Program-made: the position numbers and the translations under genes
Source of the DNA: Sulfobacillus thermotolerans
GTDB lineage: Bacteria > Bacillota > Sulfobacillia > Sulfobacillales > Sulfobacillaceae
Assembly: GCA_002951815.1 (NCBI GenBank)
Contig: CP019454.1
Span: 3,087,837-3,111,836 of the forward strand
DNA: 24,000 bases
Direction of reading: 5' to 3'
In this document: positions 4,043 to 24,000 of the stretch, piece after piece
Numbering within the stretch: position 1 is the stretch's first letter
How the letters are laid out: every line of letters begins with the position of its first letter
The notes under the pieces: model-generated
Seen by the model: the letters and a program-made list of their open reading frames with translations, nothing else
The model's database searches: none
What the model was told of the DNA's origin: nothing

Positions 4043-4904
4043 GACCGTCAGTTCCTGGATTTGGCTTGGAGGGTTGGCTTCGGTATTAGCACTTCCTGTG
4101 TTGCTATTGGGAGCGCTTGATGCAACCCTCGCTCACCATCTCGCTTGGGCCCTCATGAAATCCCCCATGCACCCGGGGCCTATGACGGTCCCCTTATGGC
4201 TTGTTGTTTTAGGTCTTTTCGTGTCTGCCTTGTTAGGTGGATATCTTTATCGCCTCATTGCTATCAGCACCCGCCATATCAGAGAACAATCGACCATCGC
4301 CGCAAAGCTCGAATCTCGCTTGTCCCCACTACCGGAGGAACTCATTCCCCCTAACTTGGCCCCATCAAACCAGGTGCGTTTCGTCAGTCTAACGGAAAGC
4401 ACACCCCATGCCTTTACCTACGGCTTTCGTACCCCCACCATCGTCATCGCGCATTCCATGCAACATTTGCTCGACCGCCAAGCTTTAGCTGCCATCATCG
4501 CCCATGAATATAGTCATGTCCGTTCGCAAGATTATGCGATTCAACAGCTGTTCATAATATTGATTCACACACTGCCTGGGTTTGGTTTCGGCACACTATA
4601 TCGCCAATACTTAACCATTCGGGAAATTCAGGCCGACCAATTTGCCACCTCGTGGCAGCATACTCCCGATCATTTAATTCATGCGATGGTGGCTACCGTG
4701 CGTGCCCTGAAAAACCAACCTGCCGCCCCCTTTCCAAGCGAACCCGCTTGGAATAGCGGCTGGCAGGCACGTATTGACGCCCTAGCATCTTCTGATGGAG
4801 GGAACTCCCATCATCCCGTTGGCATTCTCTGGCCATTTCTGACCTTTCCCGCCATCAGTTCGAGCCTTTTTGTTGCAGCATGTATCGCGGTGGCGTGTCA
4901 CTAA
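4035..4904 (+). CDS. BlaR1-like membrane M56/M48-type zinc metalloprotease (anti-repressor/sensor)
   Basis: 289 aa. It has N-terminal TM helices, the HExxH motif IIAHEYSHVRSQD and a C-terminal TM, and is translationally coupled to the BlaI-like gene. Confidence 0.7.
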   Translation: MTKTVSSWIWLGGLASVLALPVLLLGALDATLAHHLAWALMKSPMHPGPMTVPLWLVVLGLFVSALLGGYLYRLIAISTRHIREQSTIAAKLESRLSPLPEELIPPNLAPSNQVRFVSLTESTPHAFTYGFRTPTIVIAHSMQHLLDRQALAAIIAHEYSHVRSQDYAIQQLFIILIHTLPGFGFGTLYRQYLTIREIQADQFATSWQHTPDHLIHAMVATVRALKNQPAAPFPSEPAWNSGWQARIDALASSDGGNSHHPVGILWPFLTFPAISSSLFVAACIAVACH

Positions 4905-4916
4905 AGCGGACCCTAC

Positions 4917-5789
4917 TTATTGAGCCATCAGATCAGCGTTTAGACCACCCGCGATGCGGCCCATACCCTGGGACACCACAATGCGGACGGGTAACGCCGT
5001 CATCGATGCCCCCGCTTTTGCGGTATATGAGACTTGCCCTTGACTATTGGTGGTTAGATGCGTGCCGCCCGAGGAACTCATCGAGGATCCCCCCATAGAC
5101 GAGGAAGCTCCGGGCGTTTTCGGCGTGACACTGACACTCGCTCCAGACACCGGGCCTGAAGGACTCATGACCGTAATCGTAAGCGGCTGAGATGATCGTG
5201 CGGCAACCACCCGGGCAAACGGTTGAACCACAACGTAGTCGCCGACTGGAGCCGTCGGATTTGTCGTGGACGTTGTCCACCAAGCATCCATGAGCCCCGC
5301 TCCTTTCATGGAAGACGGATTAAACGTACTTAAAGAACCCACTTTGATGCCAATCATCTCCATCGTCTTGGTGGGCTGGCCACGGAGCACAATGGTAGCT
5401 TGTCCCATGCTGTTCGTTGTTTTCGAATAGCTTGCCACGTAAGGCGAAGCCGTTTGGGCGCTAGTCGAATACCACTGGCTCACCCCGGCACCTAACGGCA
5501 CCATGGGCCCAATATAGACGGTCACAGGTTGATTAGCCGCCGGTTGTCCACTGGCCGTTGTGGCCGTTACGACAAATGTGGCTTCTTGCCCAGCTTGGAC
5601 CATTTGAGCCGTTTTATTGGTATTGAGTTCTGCCACCGTCACGGAAGATGCAGCGGAACTTTTGCTAGCGGGTGTGCTGCTCATGGTGCTCGAGCCAGAC
5701 GTCTGAGGCTTGGCGGCTTGCGATGTGGTCCCGCATCCGGCCAACACGGCCGTCAAAGATACGGCCACCCCGATTACTCGTTTGGTCAT
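4917..5789 (-). CDS. Secreted lipoprotein with bacterial Ig-like (Big_1-type) segments
   Basis: 290 aa. It has the lipobox VLAGC, an S/T-rich linker and the Big-like strings GQEATFVVTATTASGQPAANQPVTVY and TTNSQGQVSYT. SD GGGGAGG lies upstream. Confidence 0.65.
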   Translation of the reverse strand: MTKRVIGVAVSLTAVLAGCGTTSQAAKPQTSGSSTMSSTPASKSSAASSVTVAELNTNKTAQMVQAGQEATFVVTATTASGQPAANQPVTVYIGPMVPLGAGVSQWYSTSAQTASPYVASYSKTTNSMGQATIVLRGQPTKTMEMIGIKVGSLSTFNPSSMKGAGLMDAWWTTSTTNPTAPVGDYVVVQPFARVVAARSSQPLTITVMSPSGPVSGASVSVTPKTPGASSSMGGSSMSSSGGTHLTTNSQGQVSYTAKAGASMTALPVRIVVSQGMGRIAGGLNADLMAQ

Positions 5790-15500: not shown

Positions 15501-15950
15501 ATGACTTCACCACTATGGCGTTTGTCTGGCGTCTTGGGCATCGCAGCCACCATGGTTTTGGCACTTGGCAGCATGACCATGGCAGCAAGTAACTCAAACT
15601 CTACGCAAGAAGGCTATGTTAGCATTACCAATGTTAAGGGCAACACAGCAACGGCGACATGGTACTGGTCTGGATTAACAGACGGAGAATATGTGGCCGT
15701 GGAAGCGATCTACAATGGCACCACCACGCCACTACCAGCGTCTGACGGAACAGTCACAACAGCAGGTACTTACTCGACCACTGTGACGCTCCCTCCAGGT
15801 GATACATCGTGGTCGAACACGACCATTGAAATGGCTGAAGCAAACTTTGCCGAGGGGCAACTACCCGAAGTTCCGTGGGCTGCAGGCCTTCCGTTGATTT
15901 TAGTGTTGCCATGGGCCGTTTCGGCATGGCGTCGTCGTATTCCGGGGTAA
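15501..15950 (+). CDS. Small secreted T/S/N-rich protein with PEP-CTERM-like C-terminal sorting signal (LPEVP, hydrophobic helix, RRR)
   Basis: 149 aa. The signal peptide is LALGSMTMA/AS. The C-terminus LPEVPWAAGLPLILVLPWAVSAWRRRIPG (nt 15861-15947) has the tripartite motif, TM helix and basic-cluster layout of exosortase substrates. Confidence 0.7.
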   Translation: MTSPLWRLSGVLGIAATMVLALGSMTMAASNSNSTQEGYVSITNVKGNTATATWYWSGLTDGEYVAVEAIYNGTTTPLPASDGTVTTAGTYSTTVTLPPGDTSWSNTTIEMAEANFAEGQLPEVPWAAGLPLILVLPWAVSAWRRRIPG

Positions 15951-16173: not shown

Positions 16174-16899
16174 ATGCCCAACCATTCCAACACCGATTCG
16201 TATTACGATCAAGCCTTGAAACTGATGGCCCAAGGTGCCTCTATTGACGACATGATTACCACGTTAAATACTTCACGAGGCGAAATTTATCATACCGTGC
16301 GTGTCATTTTTACGGATATGCTGCGCCGCTATGGGGCGATTGCTGCAGCGACCTCATCCGTACCTGAGATTGCGGAATGGGACGCCTTAACCGGGGCGCT
16401 GACGCGCCGCACCGGAGAAATTGCGTTGCTGCAGATGTTACAAAAAACCCAGGAGGACCAGCCATTTTCGATTATTTTTCTCGATCTCGATAACTTAAAA
16501 CAAATGAATGATGCCTATGGTCACAAGGCTGGTGACCATCTGCTCTGTCAACTGGTGCACGTGGTCCTATCCAATATTCGGCGCTCAGACCAGTTAATCC
16601 GCTGGGCCGGGGATGAATTTATCCTGATATTGCCACATACGCCCAAAGCTATCGCGTGTGAAACGCTCAAACGCTTGCGCCGTGCCGATCCCACGCTTCA
16701 ATTTTCGGCCGGGGTAGCCCAGTGGGAACCCGGTGACTCCTTGTCCTCTCTCATCGACCGTGCTGACCGTGCCATGTATCAAGACAAGCGTCAGCGCAAG
16801 ACACAAACGTCCTCGTCTTCAAAGCAGATCCGTCATTTCGTTCGGGAACACCGGGCCATTAAACCTCCCCTTAAGGTTCGCAGCCTTTCTGATTCTTAA
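16174..16899 (+). CDS. GGDEF-domain diguanylate cyclase (AGDEF variant, intact RxxD I-site)
   Basis: 241 aa with SD AAGGAGG. The domain reads DALTGALTRR...FLDLDNLKQMNDAYGHKAGD...RRSDQLIRWAGDEF. The I-site RRSD is at 16579-16590 and AGDEF at 16606-16620. The 75-aa N-terminal region is uncharacterised and possibly HTH-like. Confidence 0.85.
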   Translation: MPNHSNTDSYYDQALKLMAQGASIDDMITTLNTSRGEIYHTVRVIFTDMLRRYGAIAAATSSVPEIAEWDALTGALTRRTGEIALLQMLQKTQEDQPFSIIFLDLDNLKQMNDAYGHKAGDHLLCQLVHVVLSNIRRSDQLIRWAGDEFILILPHTPKAIACETLKRLRRADPTLQFSAGVAQWEPGDSLSSLIDRADRAMYQDKRQRKTQTSSSSKQIRHFVREHRAIKPPLKVRSLSDS

Positions 16900-17042: not shown

Positions 17043-17156
17043 ATGCCTTCACCGACCGTCCTTCGTTTCAGCGCTGCCCTAGAAATGGTTACGGATTACC
17101 CTAGGTCTTTTACGCGGTTAGAAAGCGCCGCGTGGTTCAGTCATGACGAAAAATAG
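17043..17156 (+). CDS. Possible 37-aa upstream micro-ORF overlapping the exosortase start by 14 nt
   Basis: ATG at 17043 is preceded by AAAGGGA. The product is MPSPTVLRFSAALEMVTDYPRSFTRLESAAWFSHDEK. The exosortase ATG itself lacks an SD, so translational coupling is conceivable. There is no other support. Confidence 0.2.
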   Translation: MPSPTVLRFSAALEMVTDYPRSFTRLESAAWFSHDEK

Positions 17157-18768
17157 CGCCATATCGAGAACTCCAAGGCATAGCCTGACGGGGTTTTGGA
17201 TTCTCTGGGTTGGCCTTTGCACAGCTCCTCTGTTAGCCTATGCGTCTCCGTTATGGCAAAACATTTTAGCGGACACTCCTATTGCCGATTTGATTTGGAT
17301 TCCCATCTTGGCCATAGGATGGGCCTCATGGAATTTGCTGGCCGTCCCTTTTGAAGGACCTGATGATAGTGAACTCGATGCGATTTTGGGCATCAGTCTT
17401 GCCGCTATTACAGGGCTGGCTCTCATCGTTGGACCTGCGCGTTGGCCTACGGCGTTTGTCTTTGATCATGCTGGACTCCTCCTCTGGCCGCTTTGGATCT
17501 TAGCGATGACGTGGCTTTTTTGGGGTATTGGCGCGACTCGCAAAGTGCTAGGTCCGCTCGTCTACTTATTACTGGTCTGGCCCCCGGTCTTTGAAGCTAT
17601 TGCTAACGCCACGCAGACCCTTTTGGTGACTTGGGCCATTCGCATTCTTCAATATTCCACAGCCTCTTTTGGATGGATCCACGCAATTCAACCCTTTGGG
17701 ACGTTTAATGTCGCGTACGGGCATATCGAGTTTCCTGTAATTGTTGCCGAAGCCTGCAGCGGGGCGGATAGTTTGTTAGGCGCCGCTATCGTCATCCCCG
17801 TTATTTGGTTTTTGCTAAACGGCAGATGGCAACACAAGCTCTATCTTAGCTTGATTGCACTCACCGGCGCTCTGGTTTTGAATTGGATCCGGCTCATAGC
17901 GATTGTCCTAGCCGTTCATATCATTGGTCCCCATTTTACCTTTTCCTATATCCATCCGGTACTAGGATTCGTGCTCTTTGCCATGCTGACTGTGGTCTTA
18001 ATTGGGTTAATGAGGCCTTTCGGCTTATCCATGCCGTCTCCCCAAGAAAACCGGTCGATCCCTCACGCAGGCGTTGGTCGGCTCATTGCCGCCATTTTAC
18101 TATCTGGCCTGGTGTTCTATTTGCTCACCCCTTTGTTTTCCCTAGCCAAAGGGAGTTTCGGCAAGCCCCAGCCCATCTCCCACAACGCCCTCAGTGCCTT
18201 GATTCCAGACCTTCGGGGCTTCATGAGCGCATCGGTATACCATGCCAATGAATCCTCGATTTTAGGGCCGCATTCGGCTACACTTGCCGACATGTACGTC
18301 GATACGCACACCGGCCACGAAGCTTTGGTCGAGGTCTGGAGCGCTGCCAATGCCAATATGCTGGCAGCTTATGGGTTTCATAATTGTCTGTTGTATCATG
18401 GGGACAACATCGCCGCGGCCCAGTCCTTTCAACTGATTCCGGGCATTGTGGCCACCGCCTATGCGGTTACCTTGCCCGCCAACTACGTGGGAGGACCGAG
18501 ATCCACATATGTTGATATTGAGTGGACAGATTCGGTCAAGCAGCCTGATGGCGTGCGGTACTTGCGGTGGTCGCTTGCGGCTTTTCCGGCCAGTGCCCCA
18601 TCGCTTTCGTCATCCAGCCCTATTCGGTTAGATCCGCTCACGGTATCTGAAGCCATGGTTGCACCCCGCACTCACGGAACATGGACGGGAGCCATCGCGA
18701 CAACCAAAACCAATCTCATCACCATGGCTGAACGCATTCTTCACCAAAGTTTGCAGCCCAAGGCTTAG
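17143..18768 (+). CDS. Exosortase/archaeosortase-family transpeptidase fused to an EpsI-like (DUF3485-type) C-terminal domain
   Basis: 541 aa. The N-terminal roughly 320 aa are polytopic and carry the family signature in order: VIVAEACSGADSLL (Cys205, codon 17755-17757), LNWIRLIAIV (Arg), AVHIIGPHF / YIHPVLG (His). The C-terminal roughly 210 aa are soluble and contain EALVEVWSAANANMLAAYGFHNCLLYHGDNI, which resembles the EpsI HxPxxC..G core. Confidence 0.75.
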   Translation: MTKNSAISRTPRHSLTGFWILWVGLCTAPLLAYASPLWQNILADTPIADLIWIPILAIGWASWNLLAVPFEGPDDSELDAILGISLAAITGLALIVGPARWPTAFVFDHAGLLLWPLWILAMTWLFWGIGATRKVLGPLVYLLLVWPPVFEAIANATQTLLVTWAIRILQYSTASFGWIHAIQPFGTFNVAYGHIEFPVIVAEACSGADSLLGAAIVIPVIWFLLNGRWQHKLYLSLIALTGALVLNWIRLIAIVLAVHIIGPHFTFSYIHPVLGFVLFAMLTVVLIGLMRPFGLSMPSPQENRSIPHAGVGRLIAAILLSGLVFYLLTPLFSLAKGSFGKPQPISHNALSALIPDLRGFMSASVYHANESSILGPHSATLADMYVDTHTGHEALVEVWSAANANMLAAYGFHNCLLYHGDNIAAAQSFQLIPGIVATAYAVTLPANYVGGPRSTYVDIEWTDSVKQPDGVRYLRWSLAAFPASAPSLSSSSPIRLDPLTVSEAMVAPRTHGTWTGAIATTKTNLITMAERILHQSLQPKA

Positions 18769-18925
18769 TTCATTCCACGCCTTTTGGGAATCTGACAGGT
18801 TTCTTAAAGGGGTCTCGTAAAAAGAAGCATCGACGGAGCTCTATATCTTTTCAGGTTTAGCGGTCTTTATGGAAAGCGAACCGACGCCACAGCTCTTGGT
18901 GCTTGCATGCGCAAGGAGGCATCTC

Positions 18926-19969
18926 ATGCATTATTTACGTTTATTATTCGCGAGCGCCCTGGCGTTAACTTTGGCAGGGTGTGGCCAAAAAGCTGCCGTT
19001 CAGCCCGTTGCCACACACCCACCCCACAAGGTGCACGTCGTTGCCAAGCCTTTAGTAGCTCCCCCTTGGCCCACAGTTCAATCAGGCATCAATGTCGAGG
19101 TGTGGAATACCCCGACCCCTTCTCAAATTGATGGCGTGATAAATGCTGTGGCTGCCTTGCACGTTCGCACCGTTGCCATTGTTATTCCTTTCGGACAAAG
19201 CAATTGGCAAGCCAATAATGTTGGCCCTGTGCATTTTACGCCGTCGCCCCGTGTCATTCGCCAGGTCATTTTGCAAGCGTACCACGATCATCTCAGCGTC
19301 ATGCTTCGTCCCATGTTAGACGAGGGCACGTTAACGCCTTCAGGTCATTGGCGTGGTGATATTGCACCGCAGTCATTGAACAGCTGGTTTAAGCACTATG
19401 CCCAGGCTCTCACCCCTTACGCTGCATTAGGACAACAAGAGCATGTCGGGGCTTTTGATATCGGCACAGAGCTCTCGTCAATAGAAAGCGATAACCAAGG
19501 CTGGGATACGGTTATACACGCGGTGAAACAGGTATATCAAGGCCCGCTCTTGTACTCGTTTAATTGGAATAGCCCGAGCTTAGCTGCCCTGCCACCATGG
19601 ACCAAACAATTAACGTGGATTGGTCTTGATGCCTATTATCCACTCAATACGCCTTCCGGTACCGAGTCGGCTTTGGTGCAGGCATGGCAGCCTTGGATAT
19701 CACAAACCGCTAAAATCCCTAACCTCGTCATCACGGAACTCGGCGTTATGCCCAAGCCTCATGCTTGGCAAGCCCCATGGGTCTGGGATCCTCCGGGACC
19801 AACGAACTGGTCCGTGCAAGCCCAATATGACGCAGCTGCCATTAAAGCGTGGCAGGGCCATGCCCAGGGTCTCTATTGGTGGGGCGTCATGCTGCCACGC
19901 TCAGGCCAAGGCGCCTCATTTGACCCCATTTGGCACCCGAGTGCGGCCGTGATTCAAACGGCATGGTAA
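18926..19969 (+). CDS. Lipoprotein, clan GH-A-like TIM-barrel glycoside hydrolase candidate
   Basis: I prefer the ATG at 18926 (AAGGAGG SD 6 nt upstream; MHYLRLLFASALALTLAGCG lipobox) over the track start at 18869. Candidate catalytic glutamates lie in FDIGTELSS and LVITELGV, about 90 aa apart as in (beta/alpha)8 retaining hydrolases. Confidence 0.6.
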   Translation: MHYLRLLFASALALTLAGCGQKAAVQPVATHPPHKVHVVAKPLVAPPWPTVQSGINVEVWNTPTPSQIDGVINAVAALHVRTVAIVIPFGQSNWQANNVGPVHFTPSPRVIRQVILQAYHDHLSVMLRPMLDEGTLTPSGHWRGDIAPQSLNSWFKHYAQALTPYAALGQQEHVGAFDIGTELSSIESDNQGWDTVIHAVKQVYQGPLLYSFNWNSPSLAALPPWTKQLTWIGLDAYYPLNTPSGTESALVQAWQPWISQTAKIPNLVITELGVMPKPHAWQAPWVWDPPGPTNWSVQAQYDAAAIKAWQGHAQGLYWWGVMLPRSGQGASFDPIWHPSAAVIQTAW

Positions 19970-20485: not shown

Positions 20486-22732
20486 TTACACAGCCGATTC
20501 TTGTGCAGAGTTCCCCATGACCGAGGTGACATCATAGGGTGCTGTGCTTAATCCGTGTACGGTTTTTTCCCAATGAGATGGCCGTGTGATCAGCTGCATT
20601 AAGGCTTTCCAAGACGCTAAAGACATCATGCTCCAATAAATGGGGGTCAGCACCGTATACGGTACCAGCTCCCAATTCCCTCGTTTGGCTACCCCCAACG
20701 CGTTAATATAGGTAAAGATGAAATTGCCGGCTAACAGATTAATCATACCTAAGTAATAGATGCCCGGAGGAAATAACGACGGAATCACATGCCAGTGGGT
20801 CATAAACCACAAACTCGTAAGAAACCAATACAGCGGGTTTAACAAAAACATGAGGGGAGTCCCTAAAATAGACATTTGAAATCCCCAAAATCCTCGTGCT
20901 CCCATGGACCGGTAGAGTTTAATGGGATGGCGCATATGCACCAACCATGTTTGAATATAACCTTTAATCCACCGTGAGCGTTGGCGAACCCAATTGACAA
21001 ATTCAGAGTTGGCCTCTTCATACGTATTCGAATCGATGACGGAAGCATAGTAACCGGCTTTGTAAAGGCGAATGCCTAGGTCCGCATCTTCGGTAACATT
21101 GTAGGGATCCCATCCTCCTAACTCGCGCAAGCGGTCAATGCGAAAATGGTTCGATGTCCCCCCTAAAGGAATGGGCAGCTTAGCGCGATATAACGCCGGT
21201 AAAAAGAGGTCAAACCACGATGCATACTCCGCCGTGAACCACCGCGTTAATAGGTTTTGTTCCGCATTAAAATAGGAGAGCTTGGCCTGGACACACGCCA
21301 GTTTATCGTCATGCTGACGAAATGCCACAATGGCTTTTTTGAGTTGCAAAGGTTCAGGCAGATCTTCCGCATCAAAAATGGTTACGTACTCCCCTCTGGC
21401 CAGTTGCAGTCCGTAATTGCAGGCTTTGGGCTTAGTGCGTGGCTCGCTTGGGGGGACAATCACGATATCGATGAAGTGCGGTAAGTTAGCGGCCTTTGCG
21501 GCCGCAATCGTGTCCTCGTCGTCAGCTTCAAGCAGTAACTTGACGTCGAGTCGGTCCTTTGGATAGTCAAGAGCATTTAGTGCCCGTGTTAGAGTTGGCA
21601 AGACGGCCGCTTCTTCACGGGCTGGTACTAAAATCGTATAAATCGGTAAATCGCGCTCGTCTAATGCCGCAACCATATCCTGACTCCCTAAGGCGGAATC
21701 AGGAATATCCGTGCCTTGGCGAATCATCCACAGACGATAGGCGATAGTCACAGAGTACATAATGATAAGCAAGCTACTGAGGACCGATATGGCCACACTA
21801 GGATGCCACACTAAGAGCGCGACGACACAAGCTAAGGTGACCGCAACACTAACCCATTGTCTTCGTGTCATAGTCTTTCGGGCAGAATCTTCAGGCCGAA
21901 CGGTAGCCAGGTGGTCACGGCTCATAGCCATATCAACAACGTGAAATCGGGCCGTTAACACGGCCTCAATATCACGCTTGCCAGACACCATAACTTGAGG
22001 AGCAGAGGGCAAAAGACGCTCTAATTCCTCCACCGCTTGTTGTGACTGCCACGGATCTTCGACAGCCAGCACAGCCGCCGACCCACTCCATCCAATGGGT
22101 ACCATCCGGGCTTGGCGCCAAAACTGTTCCTCCCTTAGAGCCCAGACATGGCTCAGATTGGGTTCGTGGGCAATTTTTTCTGGATCTTGTGCTAACAAGT
22201 TTACTTCCGGAAGGTTGAGTTGCGACGCTACAACCCGGGCCACCCCCCAATAAGTGAGGACCCGGTGCTGAACCAAAATTTGGCCGAGTTTTCCACCGCG
22301 CCGTGCCTGTTCTGCCAACGCGCTGTCAACATCGCGCGAGGAAATGAGCCCTAAACGTCTCGCGGTTTCTCCGAAATAAGATGATGGCCGCACATCATGG
22401 TGTTCACCCAAGACGCGTCGGTACGCGTGAGCAATGCTCCGCGCACTCGCACGGTAAAGTGTTACCGGCACGACAATGCGTCCTAATAAAGCTCGTGCGT
22501 CATCACTTAAGGGAAACACCGCAGCCACACAGACCCTGCCCGAATCAAACCGAAAGGCTAGCAGGCCAGCCTTTTGTGCACTGGCCGCATCTAACATGAG
22601 TGCTGCACTCGGGTCAACGGGGTCATGGATTTGTCCCTGAGAATTCCTTGTGGGAAAGAGGTCGATGCTCTCAATGTCCTCTTGAGATATCGCGGCCATG
22701 GAATCCACAAAATGACTCGGATCGACTATCAT
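20486..22732 (-). CDS. Processive family-2 glycosyltransferase (exopolysaccharide synthase) with N-terminal T2SSE_N/MshEN-like domain
   Basis: 748 aa. The N-terminal roughly 290 aa carry two tandem 24-residue MshEN-like motifs, YFGETARRLGLISSRDVDSALAEQ and KLGQILVQHRVLTYWGVARVVASQ, separated by the spacer ARRGG (nt 22220-22378). TM helices follow, then a GT2 core with YTILVPAREE, FDAEDLP and RQRSRWIKGY (QxxRW), then C-terminal TM helices. Confidence 0.85.
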   Translation of the reverse strand: MIVDPSHFVDSMAAISQEDIESIDLFPTRNSQGQIHDPVDPSAALMLDAASAQKAGLLAFRFDSGRVCVAAVFPLSDDARALLGRIVVPVTLYRASARSIAHAYRRVLGEHHDVRPSSYFGETARRLGLISSRDVDSALAEQARRGGKLGQILVQHRVLTYWGVARVVASQLNLPEVNLLAQDPEKIAHEPNLSHVWALREEQFWRQARMVPIGWSGSAAVLAVEDPWQSQQAVEELERLLPSAPQVMVSGKRDIEAVLTARFHVVDMAMSRDHLATVRPEDSARKTMTRRQWVSVAVTLACVVALLVWHPSVAISVLSSLLIIMYSVTIAYRLWMIRQGTDIPDSALGSQDMVAALDERDLPIYTILVPAREEAAVLPTLTRALNALDYPKDRLDVKLLLEADDEDTIAAAKAANLPHFIDIVIVPPSEPRTKPKACNYGLQLARGEYVTIFDAEDLPEPLQLKKAIVAFRQHDDKLACVQAKLSYFNAEQNLLTRWFTAEYASWFDLFLPALYRAKLPIPLGGTSNHFRIDRLRELGGWDPYNVTEDADLGIRLYKAGYYASVIDSNTYEEANSEFVNWVRQRSRWIKGYIQTWLVHMRHPIKLYRSMGARGFWGFQMSILGTPLMFLLNPLYWFLTSLWFMTHWHVIPSLFPPGIYYLGMINLLAGNFIFTYINALGVAKRGNWELVPYTVLTPIYWSMMSLASWKALMQLITRPSHWEKTVHGLSTAPYDVTSVMGNSAQESAV

Positions 22733-22950
22733 GAGATATTTCCTTTCTGGGAATTCTCGACTGGCTGAGGCGGATGCAAAACGGTTTTCCTTTTGTGATT
22801 CTGCTGGGAGGACAAGGAGGCATAAACAATAATCATTCCCCCAAAGAGCACAAGCGGGAGAATATCAATAGTCCAAAACATCAACAACATGGCCACGAGA
22901 AATATTGCTACGCTACCTGCAGTCCAAACACTGCGTCTCAAAGTCTTCAT
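22729..22950 (-). CDS. Small two-TM membrane protein, translationally coupled (ATGA overlap) to the GT2 synthase
   Basis: The product is MKTLRRSVWTAGSVAIFLVAMLLMFWTIDILPLVLFGGMIIVYASL.... A GAGGTGG-type SD lies upstream. Its stop overlaps the GT2 ATG. The alternative ATG at 22962 has no spacing to the SD. Confidence 0.55.
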   Translation of the reverse strand: MKTLRRSVWTAGSVAIFLVAMLLMFWTIDILPLVLFGGMIIVYASLSSQQNHKRKTVLHPPQPVENSQKGNIS

Positions 22951-23131
22951 CGTCCACCTCATCCTCTCGCCATCCTAAAGCGTTAATCACATCGTAGATG
23001 GTTTCCTGTGCTCATTGTAAAGAATAGGGTCTCGCGATACCGTACCAGCTAGCGTCTCAGACTGCGTCTTACAATCCCATCGTTACCGGCGCAAACTGGT
23101 AAATATTTTGCGGTTTTGACCTGTTTAAATC

Positions 23132-23161
23132 TTGAACATTCTTTGCATCTAGGATTACTAT
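23132..23161 (+). promoter_or_regulatory. Candidate sigma-A-type promoter for the riboswitch-led transcript
   Basis: TTGAAC (23132-23137), an 18-nt spacer, then TACTAT (23156-23161), about 45 nt upstream of the aptamer core. Confidence 0.3.
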
Positions 23162-23204
23162 GAGATTAGAAAAACTTGGAAGAACCAAGTCAAGCATTGA
23201 AACG

Positions 23205-23300
23205 GCCGATAAGGGCAAACCTGATTGAAAAACAGGGACGCAAAACTAAAGGGGCTTCTTACCATTACGGTAAATGCCAGCCAGTTGCCGAAACGGGACA
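23205..23300 (+). promoter_or_regulatory. c-di-GMP-I (GEMM-I) riboswitch aptamer
   Basis: The sequence reads aaGGGCAAACCtgattGAAAaacagGGACGCAAAaCtaaaGGGGc..(hairpin TTACC/GGTAA)..gCCAGCCAGTTGCCGAAa. This matches the GEMM-I core as I recall it: GGCAAACC, a GNRA-type hairpin, GGGACGCAAAGCC, a second hairpin, then AGCCGGGUUACCGA. GGCAA and TTGCC can close P1. Confidence 0.75.
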
Positions 23301-23308
23301 TTGGATTT

Positions 23309-23340
23309 GAGACCGTCCCGCTTTCCGGGAGGTCTCGTTT
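23309..23340 (+). terminator. Riboswitch expression-platform terminator
   Basis: GAGACCGTCCCG / CGGGAGGTCTC form an 11-bp stem with one bulge and a 5-nt loop, followed by GTTTCAT, ending 33 nt before the ATG. The upstream CGGGAC (23294-23299) can instead pair with GTCCCG (23315-23320) as an antiterminator. Confidence 0.55.
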
Positions 23341-23372
23341 CATGTCGGAGGACATGAAAGGAAGAAAATCCA

Positions 23373-24000
23373 ATGACGCCGATGGTTAAATTGATGGCGC
23401 TTAGTGCGCTGGCGCTCCCATTAACTTTTCTTTCCGTGAACCATTCCGTTTCCACGGTAGCAAGTAACGCGGTTCTTGCTGCGCCCCCCCTTACCACCTC
23501 GATAAGCCGCAATGATTTCGGCATTGACGTGTTTTCCTATGATAGTCAGTTAAATCTCCCCTCCACCATACCAACCCTGCAAACACTGGGCATGGGAATG
23601 CAGCAATTTCCTAACGACAACCAGTGGAGTTGGGTCAGCAATACATTTCGCAACGGGGGGACCGGTGCGGTGTCACTTAATGACTGGTCCCATATCTTAC
23701 AGGCTACGGATAATAGCGGCTTATTTATCTTTAATTATGATGAGAACCCAACGTTCACCGGCGGAGGAGATGCCCAAGACGCTACTCTTCTCACGCAATA
23801 TATCGTGAGTCATCATCTTCCCATTTCCGCTATTGTCATTGGTAGCGAGGAATATGGTCCCTGGGATTTTGCCGCCAACATGAATCCCTCGCACTCTGCC
23901 GCCTATTATGCGCAAAGTGCGGCTCAGATCGCCCAAGCGATCCATGCGGTTGATCCCGCAATGAAAGTCGGCATTTCTTTCTCTGTAGGAATGGGCTCGT
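23373..24000 (+). CDS. Secreted glycoside-hydrolase-like protein (TIM-barrel, GH-A-like), 3' end beyond the window
   Basis: Hand translation gives MTPMVKLMALSALALPLTFLSVNHSVSTVASNAVLAAPP... (signal peptide), then FGIDVFSYD..., LFIFNYDENPTF and AIVIGSEEYGPWDF, which resembles the IGNEP acid/base strand. The frame stays open to the window end. It is not in the ORF track because there is no stop in the window. Confidence 0.6.
   Translation, partial: MTPMVKLMALSALALPLTFLSVNHSVSTVASNAVLAAPPLTTSISRNDFGIDVFSYDSQLNLPSTIPTLQTLGMGMQQFPNDNQWSWVSNTFRNGGTGAVSLNDWSHILQATDNSGLFIFNYDENPTFTGGGDAQDATLLTQYIVSHHLPISAIVIGSEEYGPWDFAANMNPSHSAAYYAQSAAQIAQAIHAVDPAMKVGISFSVGMGS

Follow-up and report, generated by a model that had tools for sequence, protein, structure and literature searches.

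Near the 3' end of a 24,000-nucleotide stretch of the Sulfobacillus thermotolerans genome (contig CP019454.1, positions 3,087,837 to 3,111,836; hereafter the window), a gene on the forward strand starts at ATG 23373 and runs off the stretch after 209 codons (23373..24000). The RNA at 23204-23375 is a class I cyclic di-GMP (c-di-GMP) riboswitch located in the 5' leader of this gene, which encodes a secreted hydrolase resembling glycoside hydrolase (GH) clan GH-A. On the opposite strand, further upstream, lies a gene for a putative exopolysaccharide synthase. Our complete account of the element, as a class I riboswitch that acts as a kinetically controlled OFF switch on the hydrolase gene, has in our estimate a probability of about 0.68.

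The aptamer and the gene that it precedes

When the window was compared with Rfam 15 using cmscan, the only match above the gathering threshold on either strand was the c-di-GMP-I (GEMM-I) family RF01051, at 23204-23292 (+), with 70.3 bits against a threshold of 35 (E = 3.6e-12). The match spans model positions 1-87 of 87 without truncation and ends 80 nt 5' of the ATG, the gene being on the same strand. An earlier note on this DNA, made from the sequence alone, had named a class I c-di-GMP riboswitch here and proposed to score it with RF01051; the identification stands, with a score twice the gathering threshold, and the conserved core strings that it quoted are all present where it placed them. 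Any Rfam-based annotation would find this riboswitch, which is an ordinary, real member of class I.

The aptamer carries a GAAA tetraloop (23227-23230, +) and a P1 core made of the pairs C23207-G23290 and G23208-C23289 (+). In the alignment to the RF01051 consensus, the equivalents of G20, A47 and C92 of Vc2, the riboswitch of Vibrio cholerae, are G23214, A23242 and C23288. We take A47 to be a ligand-contact position of Vc2 that intercalates, a role that would fall here to A23242. In Vc2, G20 reads G-alpha of the ligand and C92 pairs with G-beta (PMC6140456). Since the G20 site is occupied by G at 23214, c-di-GMP is the expected ligand, and the window aptamer is, as far as its sequence indicates, of the canonical c-di-GMP type. 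It shares with Vc2 the aptamer family, these three bases, the tetraloop and the two-helix architecture (PMC6140456), whereas the host (an acidophilic member of the Bacillota), the regulated gene and the expression platform differ. Two related classes were considered and ruled out. The GEMM-Ib riboswitches for 3',3'-cyclic GMP-AMP (cGAMP) known from Geobacter have the same fold and belong to the same Rfam clan, but carry A at the G20 position (PMC6140456), where the window has G23214. The consensus of the c-di-GMP-I-GGC variant (RF03167) differs from that of RF01051 at a single position, the A47 site, at which the window has A23242 and not G; moreover, only RF01051 scored above gathering.

A scan of a genome collection yielded 14 loci encoding relatives of the regulated protein (63-75% identity). 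An aptamer of the c-di-GMP-I clan was found directly 5' of the orthologue, on the same strand, in 12 of the 13 testable loci; L021 was left out of this count because it has too little upstream DNA, and L020 has no aptamer within 6 kb. The window and the 12 orthologous loci provided the 13 leaders of our RNA alignment. In this alignment, standard pairs make up 92% of the cells in the aptamer structure, and both sides have changed in 12 pairs, a level of covariation reached by none of 500 shuffles; as a control, sliding the partners by 1-3 columns reduced the paired cells to 18-40%. Covariation in the aligned leaders backs helices P1a and P1b. An extension of P1 into the post-aptamer element in a fixed register (columns 12-13 with 104-105) was rejected, as only 50% of cells pair, and in a shifted register it is possible in individual loci. 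Two orthologous aptamers, those of L018 and L016, scored best with RF03167; L018 was discarded as a true GGC variant and its score considered an artefact, since it has A, not G, at the diagnostic position. The aptamer of L022 (1725-1811) is the only orthologue with A at the base aligned to 23214, the Vc2 G20 site (AUAAAAGCAAAC). Such an A marks GEMM-Ib riboswitches that sense cGAMP or are bispecific; given the 1.45x coverage of the contig, it may be a sequencing error.

Two open reading frames (ORFs) on the opposite strand cover the leader (23246-23524 and 23158-23373). They are interrupted by stops in every frame in L009, the closest related locus, and are therefore spurious, as the earlier note had suspected. 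A promoter scan found no sigma-70-like promoter between 22963 and 23203, and a candidate chosen by eye (TTGAAC at 23133-23138, an 18-nt spacer and TACTAT) was dismissed, matching only 8 of 12 positions. A hairpin (ACUUGG-aagaa-CCAAGU, 23173-23191, +) lies 12 nt 5' of the aptamer, and L009 has one with a different stem sequence (UUGGAA-guagug-UUCCAA) at the equivalent place. It could be a 5' stabilising stem-loop; read on the minus strand, it is terminator-like.

The 209-codon fragment of the regulated gene is 100% identical to the N-terminus of a protein of 663 amino acids (aa), P0006, and the regulated protein is 99% identical to an 'IPT/TIG domain-containing protein' of Sulfobacillus sp. hq2. 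P0006 consists of a signal-peptide-like N-terminus, a (beta/alpha)8 barrel, a beta-sandwich and two C-terminal IPT/TIG-like domains. Its relatives form ~50 sequence clusters, and the organism-named ones, like the related loci, all come from Sulfobacillus or Bacillota/Firmicutes assemblies. An AlphaFold2 model built from 43 sequences (mean predicted local distance difference test, pLDDT, 85.2) exhibits an eight-stranded barrel, a beta-sandwich and two C-terminal immunoglobulin-like domains. Foldseek matched it in the PDB, with probability 1.0, to GH51 arabinofuranosidases, GH39 enzymes (PslG, XynB1, iduronidase), GH79 enzymes (heparanase, beta-glucuronidase) and GH30, at a sequence identity of 11-16%; multi-domain cyclodextrin glycosyltransferases also ranked high, with TM-scores of only ~0.25-0.3. 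In the model, E159 and E160 come directly after strand 151-156 and E282 lies within strand 277-283, and these three residues are invariant in the 43 sequences. Enzymes of clan GH-A have glutamates after beta-4 and on beta-7 (the 4/7 arrangement), and the modelled structure indicates a clan GH-A-like fold with this arrangement in the regulated protein. The predicted barrel, beta-sandwich and glutamate placement are shared with PslG (GH39), the GH51 arabinofuranosidases and GH79 heparanase/beta-glucuronidase; the regulated protein differs from them in its two additional C-terminal IPT/TIG-like domains and in having known relatives almost exclusively in Sulfobacillus-like genomes.

None of the Pfam and NCBIfam glycoside hydrolase models reached its cut-off with the regulated protein (Glyco_hydro_79n, 19-20 bits against 23.1; Glyco_hydro_cc, 18.9 against 21), and the sequence search of the PDB gave E values of 0.2-0.5. 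A specific CAZy family (GH39, GH51 or GH79) was accordingly rejected, the family hidden Markov models being below their curated cut-offs. We consider 'secreted glycoside-hydrolase-like' a fair level of claim for the modelled protein, and a specific family unjustified. The same wording in the earlier note agrees with the signal-peptide-like N-terminus and with the GH-A fold matches of the AlphaFold model. When the 209-aa fragment alone served as homologue query, it returned 2 matches, one of them the truncated 148-aa protein P0002 (68% identity). P0002 occurs in L001-L008 (e.g., L001 1600-4074), where it overlaps the end of a convergent DarT/Macro-domain gene pair similar to a DarTG toxin-antitoxin, and no riboswitch was found at the P0002 loci L001-L007, which were therefore left out of the RNA comparison; P0002 has the appearance of a leftover gene next to an inserted defence/toxin module.

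Alternative structures between aptamer and start codon

Between the aptamer and the gene, on the same strand, a post-aptamer element (ACGGGAC, 23293-23299) and a spacer (23300-23308) precede a terminator-like hairpin (hairpin 1, GAGACC-g-UCCCG / CUUUC / CGGGA-GGUCUC, 23309-23336) of 11 bp, with one bulge (G23315) and the loop CUUUC (-17.1 kcal/mol). Hairpin 1 is self-contained, lies 3' of the aptamer without overlapping it, forms part of the minimum free energy (MFE) fold of the full leader, and has equivalents in all 12 orthologous leaders; its bulged stem was not reported by a consensus terminator scan. It is followed by the weak U tract GUUUCAUGU (23337..23345, +), with a longest U run of 3. 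Across the orthologues, this run varies from 2 (L013) to 7 (L014): it is 3 in L009, L015, L022 and L018, as in the window, and 4-7 in six others, which places the window tail at the weak end of the 13-leader series. The bulged 11-bp terminator hairpin described in the earlier note is thus present, but with a U tract that is poor for a terminator.

The remaining leader forms two more helices in the MFE fold. Hairpin 2 (UUUCAUGUC-GGAG-GACAUGAAA, 23338..23359, +) overlaps the U tract; in L009 its stem is kept and its loop has changed from GGAG to GUCG. The loop GGAGG was therefore rejected as a Shine-Dalgarno (SD) sequence, being GUCGG in L009. The probable SD, as read from the sequence, is AAGGAAG (23358..23364, +), 8 nt 5' of the AUG (23373-23375, +) and kept in L009. 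The second is an outer helix of 10 perfect base pairs between CAUUGGAUUU (23299..23308, +) and AAAUCCAAUG (23366..23375, +), which includes the start codon and closes the leader as a three-way junction. The helix is contained in a spacer:start-region duplex of -16.8 kcal/mol, an energy that none of 500 shuffles attained. L009 has GGGUUU/AAACCC where the window has GGAUUU/AAAUCC, a compensatory double change, and a spacer:start-region helix is significant at 0.01 or better in 7 of the 13 leaders (window and L009 counted), with all sequences different.

In the other 11 leaders, the aptamer is followed by a terminator hairpin of greater length and by U runs of 2-7, and in 10 of them there follows a conserved UUCUCC-loop-GGAGG hairpin (anti-SD:SD) that sequesters the SD. 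The window and L009 lack this hairpin and combine a short U run with the three-way junction that buries the start codon instead. The high-G+C orthologue L013 (5802-5880) keeps the aptamer, the SD hairpin and the antiterminator complementarity described below; its 'terminator' is essentially devoid of a U tract (CCGUUCUCC), and its post-aptamer element, UGGGGAAG, pairs instead with CUUCCCCA, just 3' of the start codon.

The structure most relevant to regulation is a putative antiterminator, identified from duplex energies. Its 5' strand joins the 3' strand of P1 (CCGAAA) to CGGGAC, forming CCGAAACGGGAC (23288..23299, +), and its 3' strand is GUCCCG(C)UUUC(C)GG (23315..23328, +). They can form 12 bp with two bulges (-16.8 kcal/mol), an energy equalled by only 0.3% of target-strand shuffles. 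The 5' half is the 3' strand of P1, the C92 equivalent included, and the 3' half runs from the upper 5' stem of the terminator through the loop into the beginning of the upper 3' stem. The alternative CGGGAC (23294-23299)/GUCCCG (23315-20) pairing that the earlier note had spotted, 23315-23320 on its 3' side, exists and is the core of this longer duplex. At every one of the 13 loci, the first four bases of the P1 3' strand (CCGA) and the element after them can form a duplex with the apex of the terminator (-11.6 to -16.8 kcal/mol), the window having the strongest; 12 of the 13 duplexes outdo 95% or more of the shuffles. Unpaired nucleotides of the terminator loop are complementary to the 3' strand of P1 in each of these loci, and between 1 and 6 antiterminator pairs per locus involve loop bases that the terminator itself does not constrain. 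One position varies in concert with its partner: position 7, which follows GAA(A), is C-G in 6 loci and U-A in 4. In 9 of the 13 loci, a transcript truncated just ahead of the terminator's lower 3' strand has the antiterminator in its MFE fold. In the window, the antiterminator is present in the transcript that ends at 23328, and by 23336 the terminator has taken its place. The energies for the full-length leader are -66.7 kcal/mol in the closed state and -56.1 kcal/mol with the antiterminator enforced, a gap of ~10.6 kcal/mol.

Predicted direction of the switch

The earlier note had left open whether the riboswitch is ON or OFF; the antiterminator analysis makes OFF the most likely direction. 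Aptamer and terminator have no bases in common, and the one strand shared between the aptamer and the platform is part of the antiterminator, so that a P1 stabilised by the ligand should favour the terminator. On these sequence relationships, c-di-GMP probably lowers the expression of the hydrolase gene. In the absence of c-di-GMP, the 12-bp antiterminator (23288-23299 with 23315-23328) would form first during transcription, block the completion of the terminator hairpin and hold CAUUGGAUUU in its loop, such that the RNA polymerase would read on and the start codon would be free. With c-di-GMP, C23288 would pair with the ligand and C23289 and G23290 would be held in P1, leaving only the 6-bp CGGGAC/GUCCCG remnant of the antiterminator; the 11-bp hairpin at 23309-23336 would then win and transcription would stop at the weak U tract. 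Any read-through RNA would close as the three-way junction, with the outer helix (23299-23308 with 23366-23375) burying the AUG. Topology would act in the same direction: the full antiterminator would leave a linker of 2 nt for the lower stem GAGACC/GGUCUC, which appears infeasible, and the 6-bp remnant would leave 10 nt. Since the closed state is ~10.6 kcal/mol more stable, the decision must be kinetic and co-transcriptional.

Several points weigh against this OFF model. It derives the direction from base complementarity and from nearest-neighbour energies that take no account of the ligand or of tertiary contacts. A cross-locus permutation test of antiterminator covariation was marginal (p ~0.05) because the motif is mostly conserved and varies little; the case for the antiterminator rests on the loop complementarity and the one covarying position, not on this test. 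The MFE fold of one truncated window transcript pairs the aptamer core GGGACG with CGUCCC, and not the P1 3' strand; the pairing is different from the one proposed, although the logic is still that of an unfolded aptamer giving an antiterminator. Given the stability of the closed state, burial of the start codon may be constitutive rather than regulated, and with U runs as short as 3 (2 in L013) the hairpin may terminate poorly. Exopolysaccharide (EPS) hydrolases such as PslG can be required for polymer synthesis, so repression of the hydrolase at high c-di-GMP is not the only biology that makes sense. Finally, the c-di-GMP-I riboswitch Bc1 has a well-predicted platform and is yet unresponsive in vivo (PMC11218506).

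The short U runs also lead to the best-surviving alternative, which we nonetheless regard as rather unlikely: control would be exerted on translation only, hairpin 1 would not be a terminator, and c-di-GMP would decide whether the AUG-burying three-way junction, adjacent to the SD, closes. The AUG-covering outer helix, highly non-random and with a compensatory change, fits this idea, as do the U runs of only 2 or 3 in the window and the five orthologues named above and the SD-sequestering UUCUCC-loop-GGAGG hairpin of ten orthologues. However, with the closed state favoured by ~10.6 kcal/mol, the AUG would be buried with or without ligand at equilibrium, which makes a purely thermodynamic translational switch hard to build and led us to downgrade this explanation; in addition, six orthologues have good U tracts (4-7), and the orthologues' SD hairpin is a local structure, clear of the aptamer.

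An ON switch, in which c-di-GMP would favour read-through or translation and the hydrolase would be induced together with polymer synthesis, like the processing hydrolases of EPS operons, seems improbable. The terminator has no overlap with the aptamer, the CCGA that P1 shares with the platform belongs to the antiterminator in 13 of 13 loci, and inspection of the sequences revealed no stretch of the aptamer able to serve as an anti-antiterminator by pairing with the post-aptamer element. These features stand against the presence of hydrolases such as PslG, itself among the fold matches, in EPS biosynthetic clusters, the co-directional arrangement of the hydrolase gene and the synthase cluster in most related loci, and the case of L016, where pairing of the post-aptamer element with the anti-SD element is possible instead and would leave the SD free in the bound state.

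Least probable of all, and in our view very unlikely, is an aptamer that binds c-di-GMP above an unresponsive platform, the leader being a constitutive attenuator or RNA-stability element: the conserved Bc1 of Bacillus thuringiensis does bind its ligand while downstream expression remains unchanged (PMC11218506), and the platforms of the window and L009 have drifted apart from the other 11 and lost the strong U tract, but the antiterminator complementarity, loop bases included, is kept in the window at the highest strength of the series, and the new outer helix carries a compensatory change, both of which argue for ongoing selection on alternative folds. Bc1, from the Bacillus cereus group, resembles the window leader in its long platform with features of transcriptional and translational control (PMC11218506); it differs in having two tandem terminators, where the window leader has one hairpin, a second hairpin and the AUG-occluding outer helix.

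A linked synthase and a possible c-di-GMP circuit

The gene divergent from the riboswitch, upstream of it, encodes a synthase of 748 aa (20486..22732, -) that combines glycosyltransferase family 2 (GT2) and MshEN domains, as supported by the Pfam GT2 families and by MshEN itself (46.1 bits against a cut-off of 23.1). It is preceded by an ORF for a membrane protein of 77 aa (22729-22962, -), also upstream of the riboswitch and divergent from it. Pfam thereby supports the divergent MshEN-GT2 operon of the earlier note. MshEN is a c-di-GMP receptor domain and NfrB a known MshEN-GT2 exopolysaccharide synthase, according to two reports (PMC5013675, PMC8669469). Like the NfrB-type synthases described there, the neighbour is a GT2 protein fused to MshEN. 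Nevertheless, positions 492-625 of the NCBIfam NfrB-type model PRK15489 (703 positions), that is, its C-terminal part, match residues 119-261 of the window synthase, the MshEN region, which are N-terminal to its GT2 domain; binding of c-di-GMP by this protein is predicted from its sequence.

Seven of the 14 related loci (L009, L012, L014, L015, L016, L018, L019) have an MshEN-GT2 gene no more than 6 kb from the riboswitch gene. Five of the seven carry it upstream and in the same direction; L009 has the divergent arrangement of the window, and in L019 the gene lies downstream on the other strand. L012 and L014 share the order exosortase, MshEN-GT2, small membrane protein, riboswitch and hydrolase gene; relative to them, the window and L009 have an inverted synthase block. 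A PMT_2-like protein of ~550 aa (dolichyl-phosphate-mannose-type glycosyltransferase fold) travels with the cluster in L012, L014 (3932-5623) and L009 (8112-9752, -), and in L014 its ORF fills the gap before the riboswitch. In L009 (3257-5752), ~2.8 kb separate the small membrane gene from the riboswitch, compared with 241 nt in the window, and this interval includes an ORF with a DDE transposase domain (4392-5447).

The same cluster of the window contains genes for a GGDEF-domain protein with the motif AGDEF (RWAGDEFILIL; 16174..16899, +), an exosortase-family protein of 541 aa (17143-18768, +; Pfam Exosortase_EpsH, E 2e-17; NCBIfam exo_archaeo, 45.4 bits against 23) and a GH113 protein (18869-19969). 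A protein of 149 aa (15501-15950, +), encoded 1.2 kb from the exosortase-family gene, ends in ...GQLPEVPWAAGLPLILVLPWAVSAWRRRIPG. This sequence, with its PEVP motif, hydrophobic helix and basic tail, resembles a PEP-CTERM sorting signal. The protein has a 59%-identical copy in L010. Together, the 149-aa protein and the exosortase-family gene would be an exosortase system in Sulfobacillus (Bacillota).

The conserved linkage supports the suggestion of the earlier note that synthesis and trimming of a polymer answer to one signal. On the OFF model, the responses of synthase and hydrolase to c-di-GMP are opposite: high c-di-GMP would activate the MshEN-GT2 synthase post-translationally and, concurrently, lower the production of the secreted hydrolase. 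The class I OFF riboswitches of Clostridioides difficile (Cd1 before flgB, and that of zmpI) likewise consist of a class I aptamer and then a terminator, with a negative effect of c-di-GMP (PMC6366702). The zmpI riboswitch represses an adhesin-releasing protease while c-di-GMP induces adhesins (PMC6366702), and it is, by analogy, the closest precedent and logical parallel, as an enzyme that removes surface or matrix components would be repressed and those components promoted. The differences are that the target here is glycoside-hydrolase-like rather than a protease or flagella, that the direction measured in C. difficile is predicted here, and that the promoted partner, MshEN-GT2, would be controlled at the protein level and not by a class II riboswitch.

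We consider it possible, though doubtful, that within this orthologous lineage the platform has been rebuilt from a mainly transcriptional into a mixed or mainly translational one, completing a three-level c-di-GMP circuit. If true, this circuit of a bioleaching acidophile would comprise a cyclase of the GGDEF family, a synthase fused to a receptor and a hydrolase repressed by a riboswitch. The 13 orthologous leaders constitute a compact natural series for the study of platform drift, in which the U tracts (2-7) and start-codon helices vary and the aptamer and antiterminator logic remain fixed.

General knowledge of riboswitches is unchanged by this finding. What usefully extends the earlier note is the OFF assignment, the start-codon-occluding junction, the diversity of platforms among orthologues and the conserved link to the synthase. 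In the papers searched on Sulfobacillus and c-di-GMP, we found no description of c-di-GMP effectors in the genus and no title or abstract dealing with riboswitches. One second messenger would turn the synthase on at the protein level and the secreted hydrolase off at the RNA level, which provides a testable wiring diagram for biofilm control in Sulfobacillus, a bioleaching genus.

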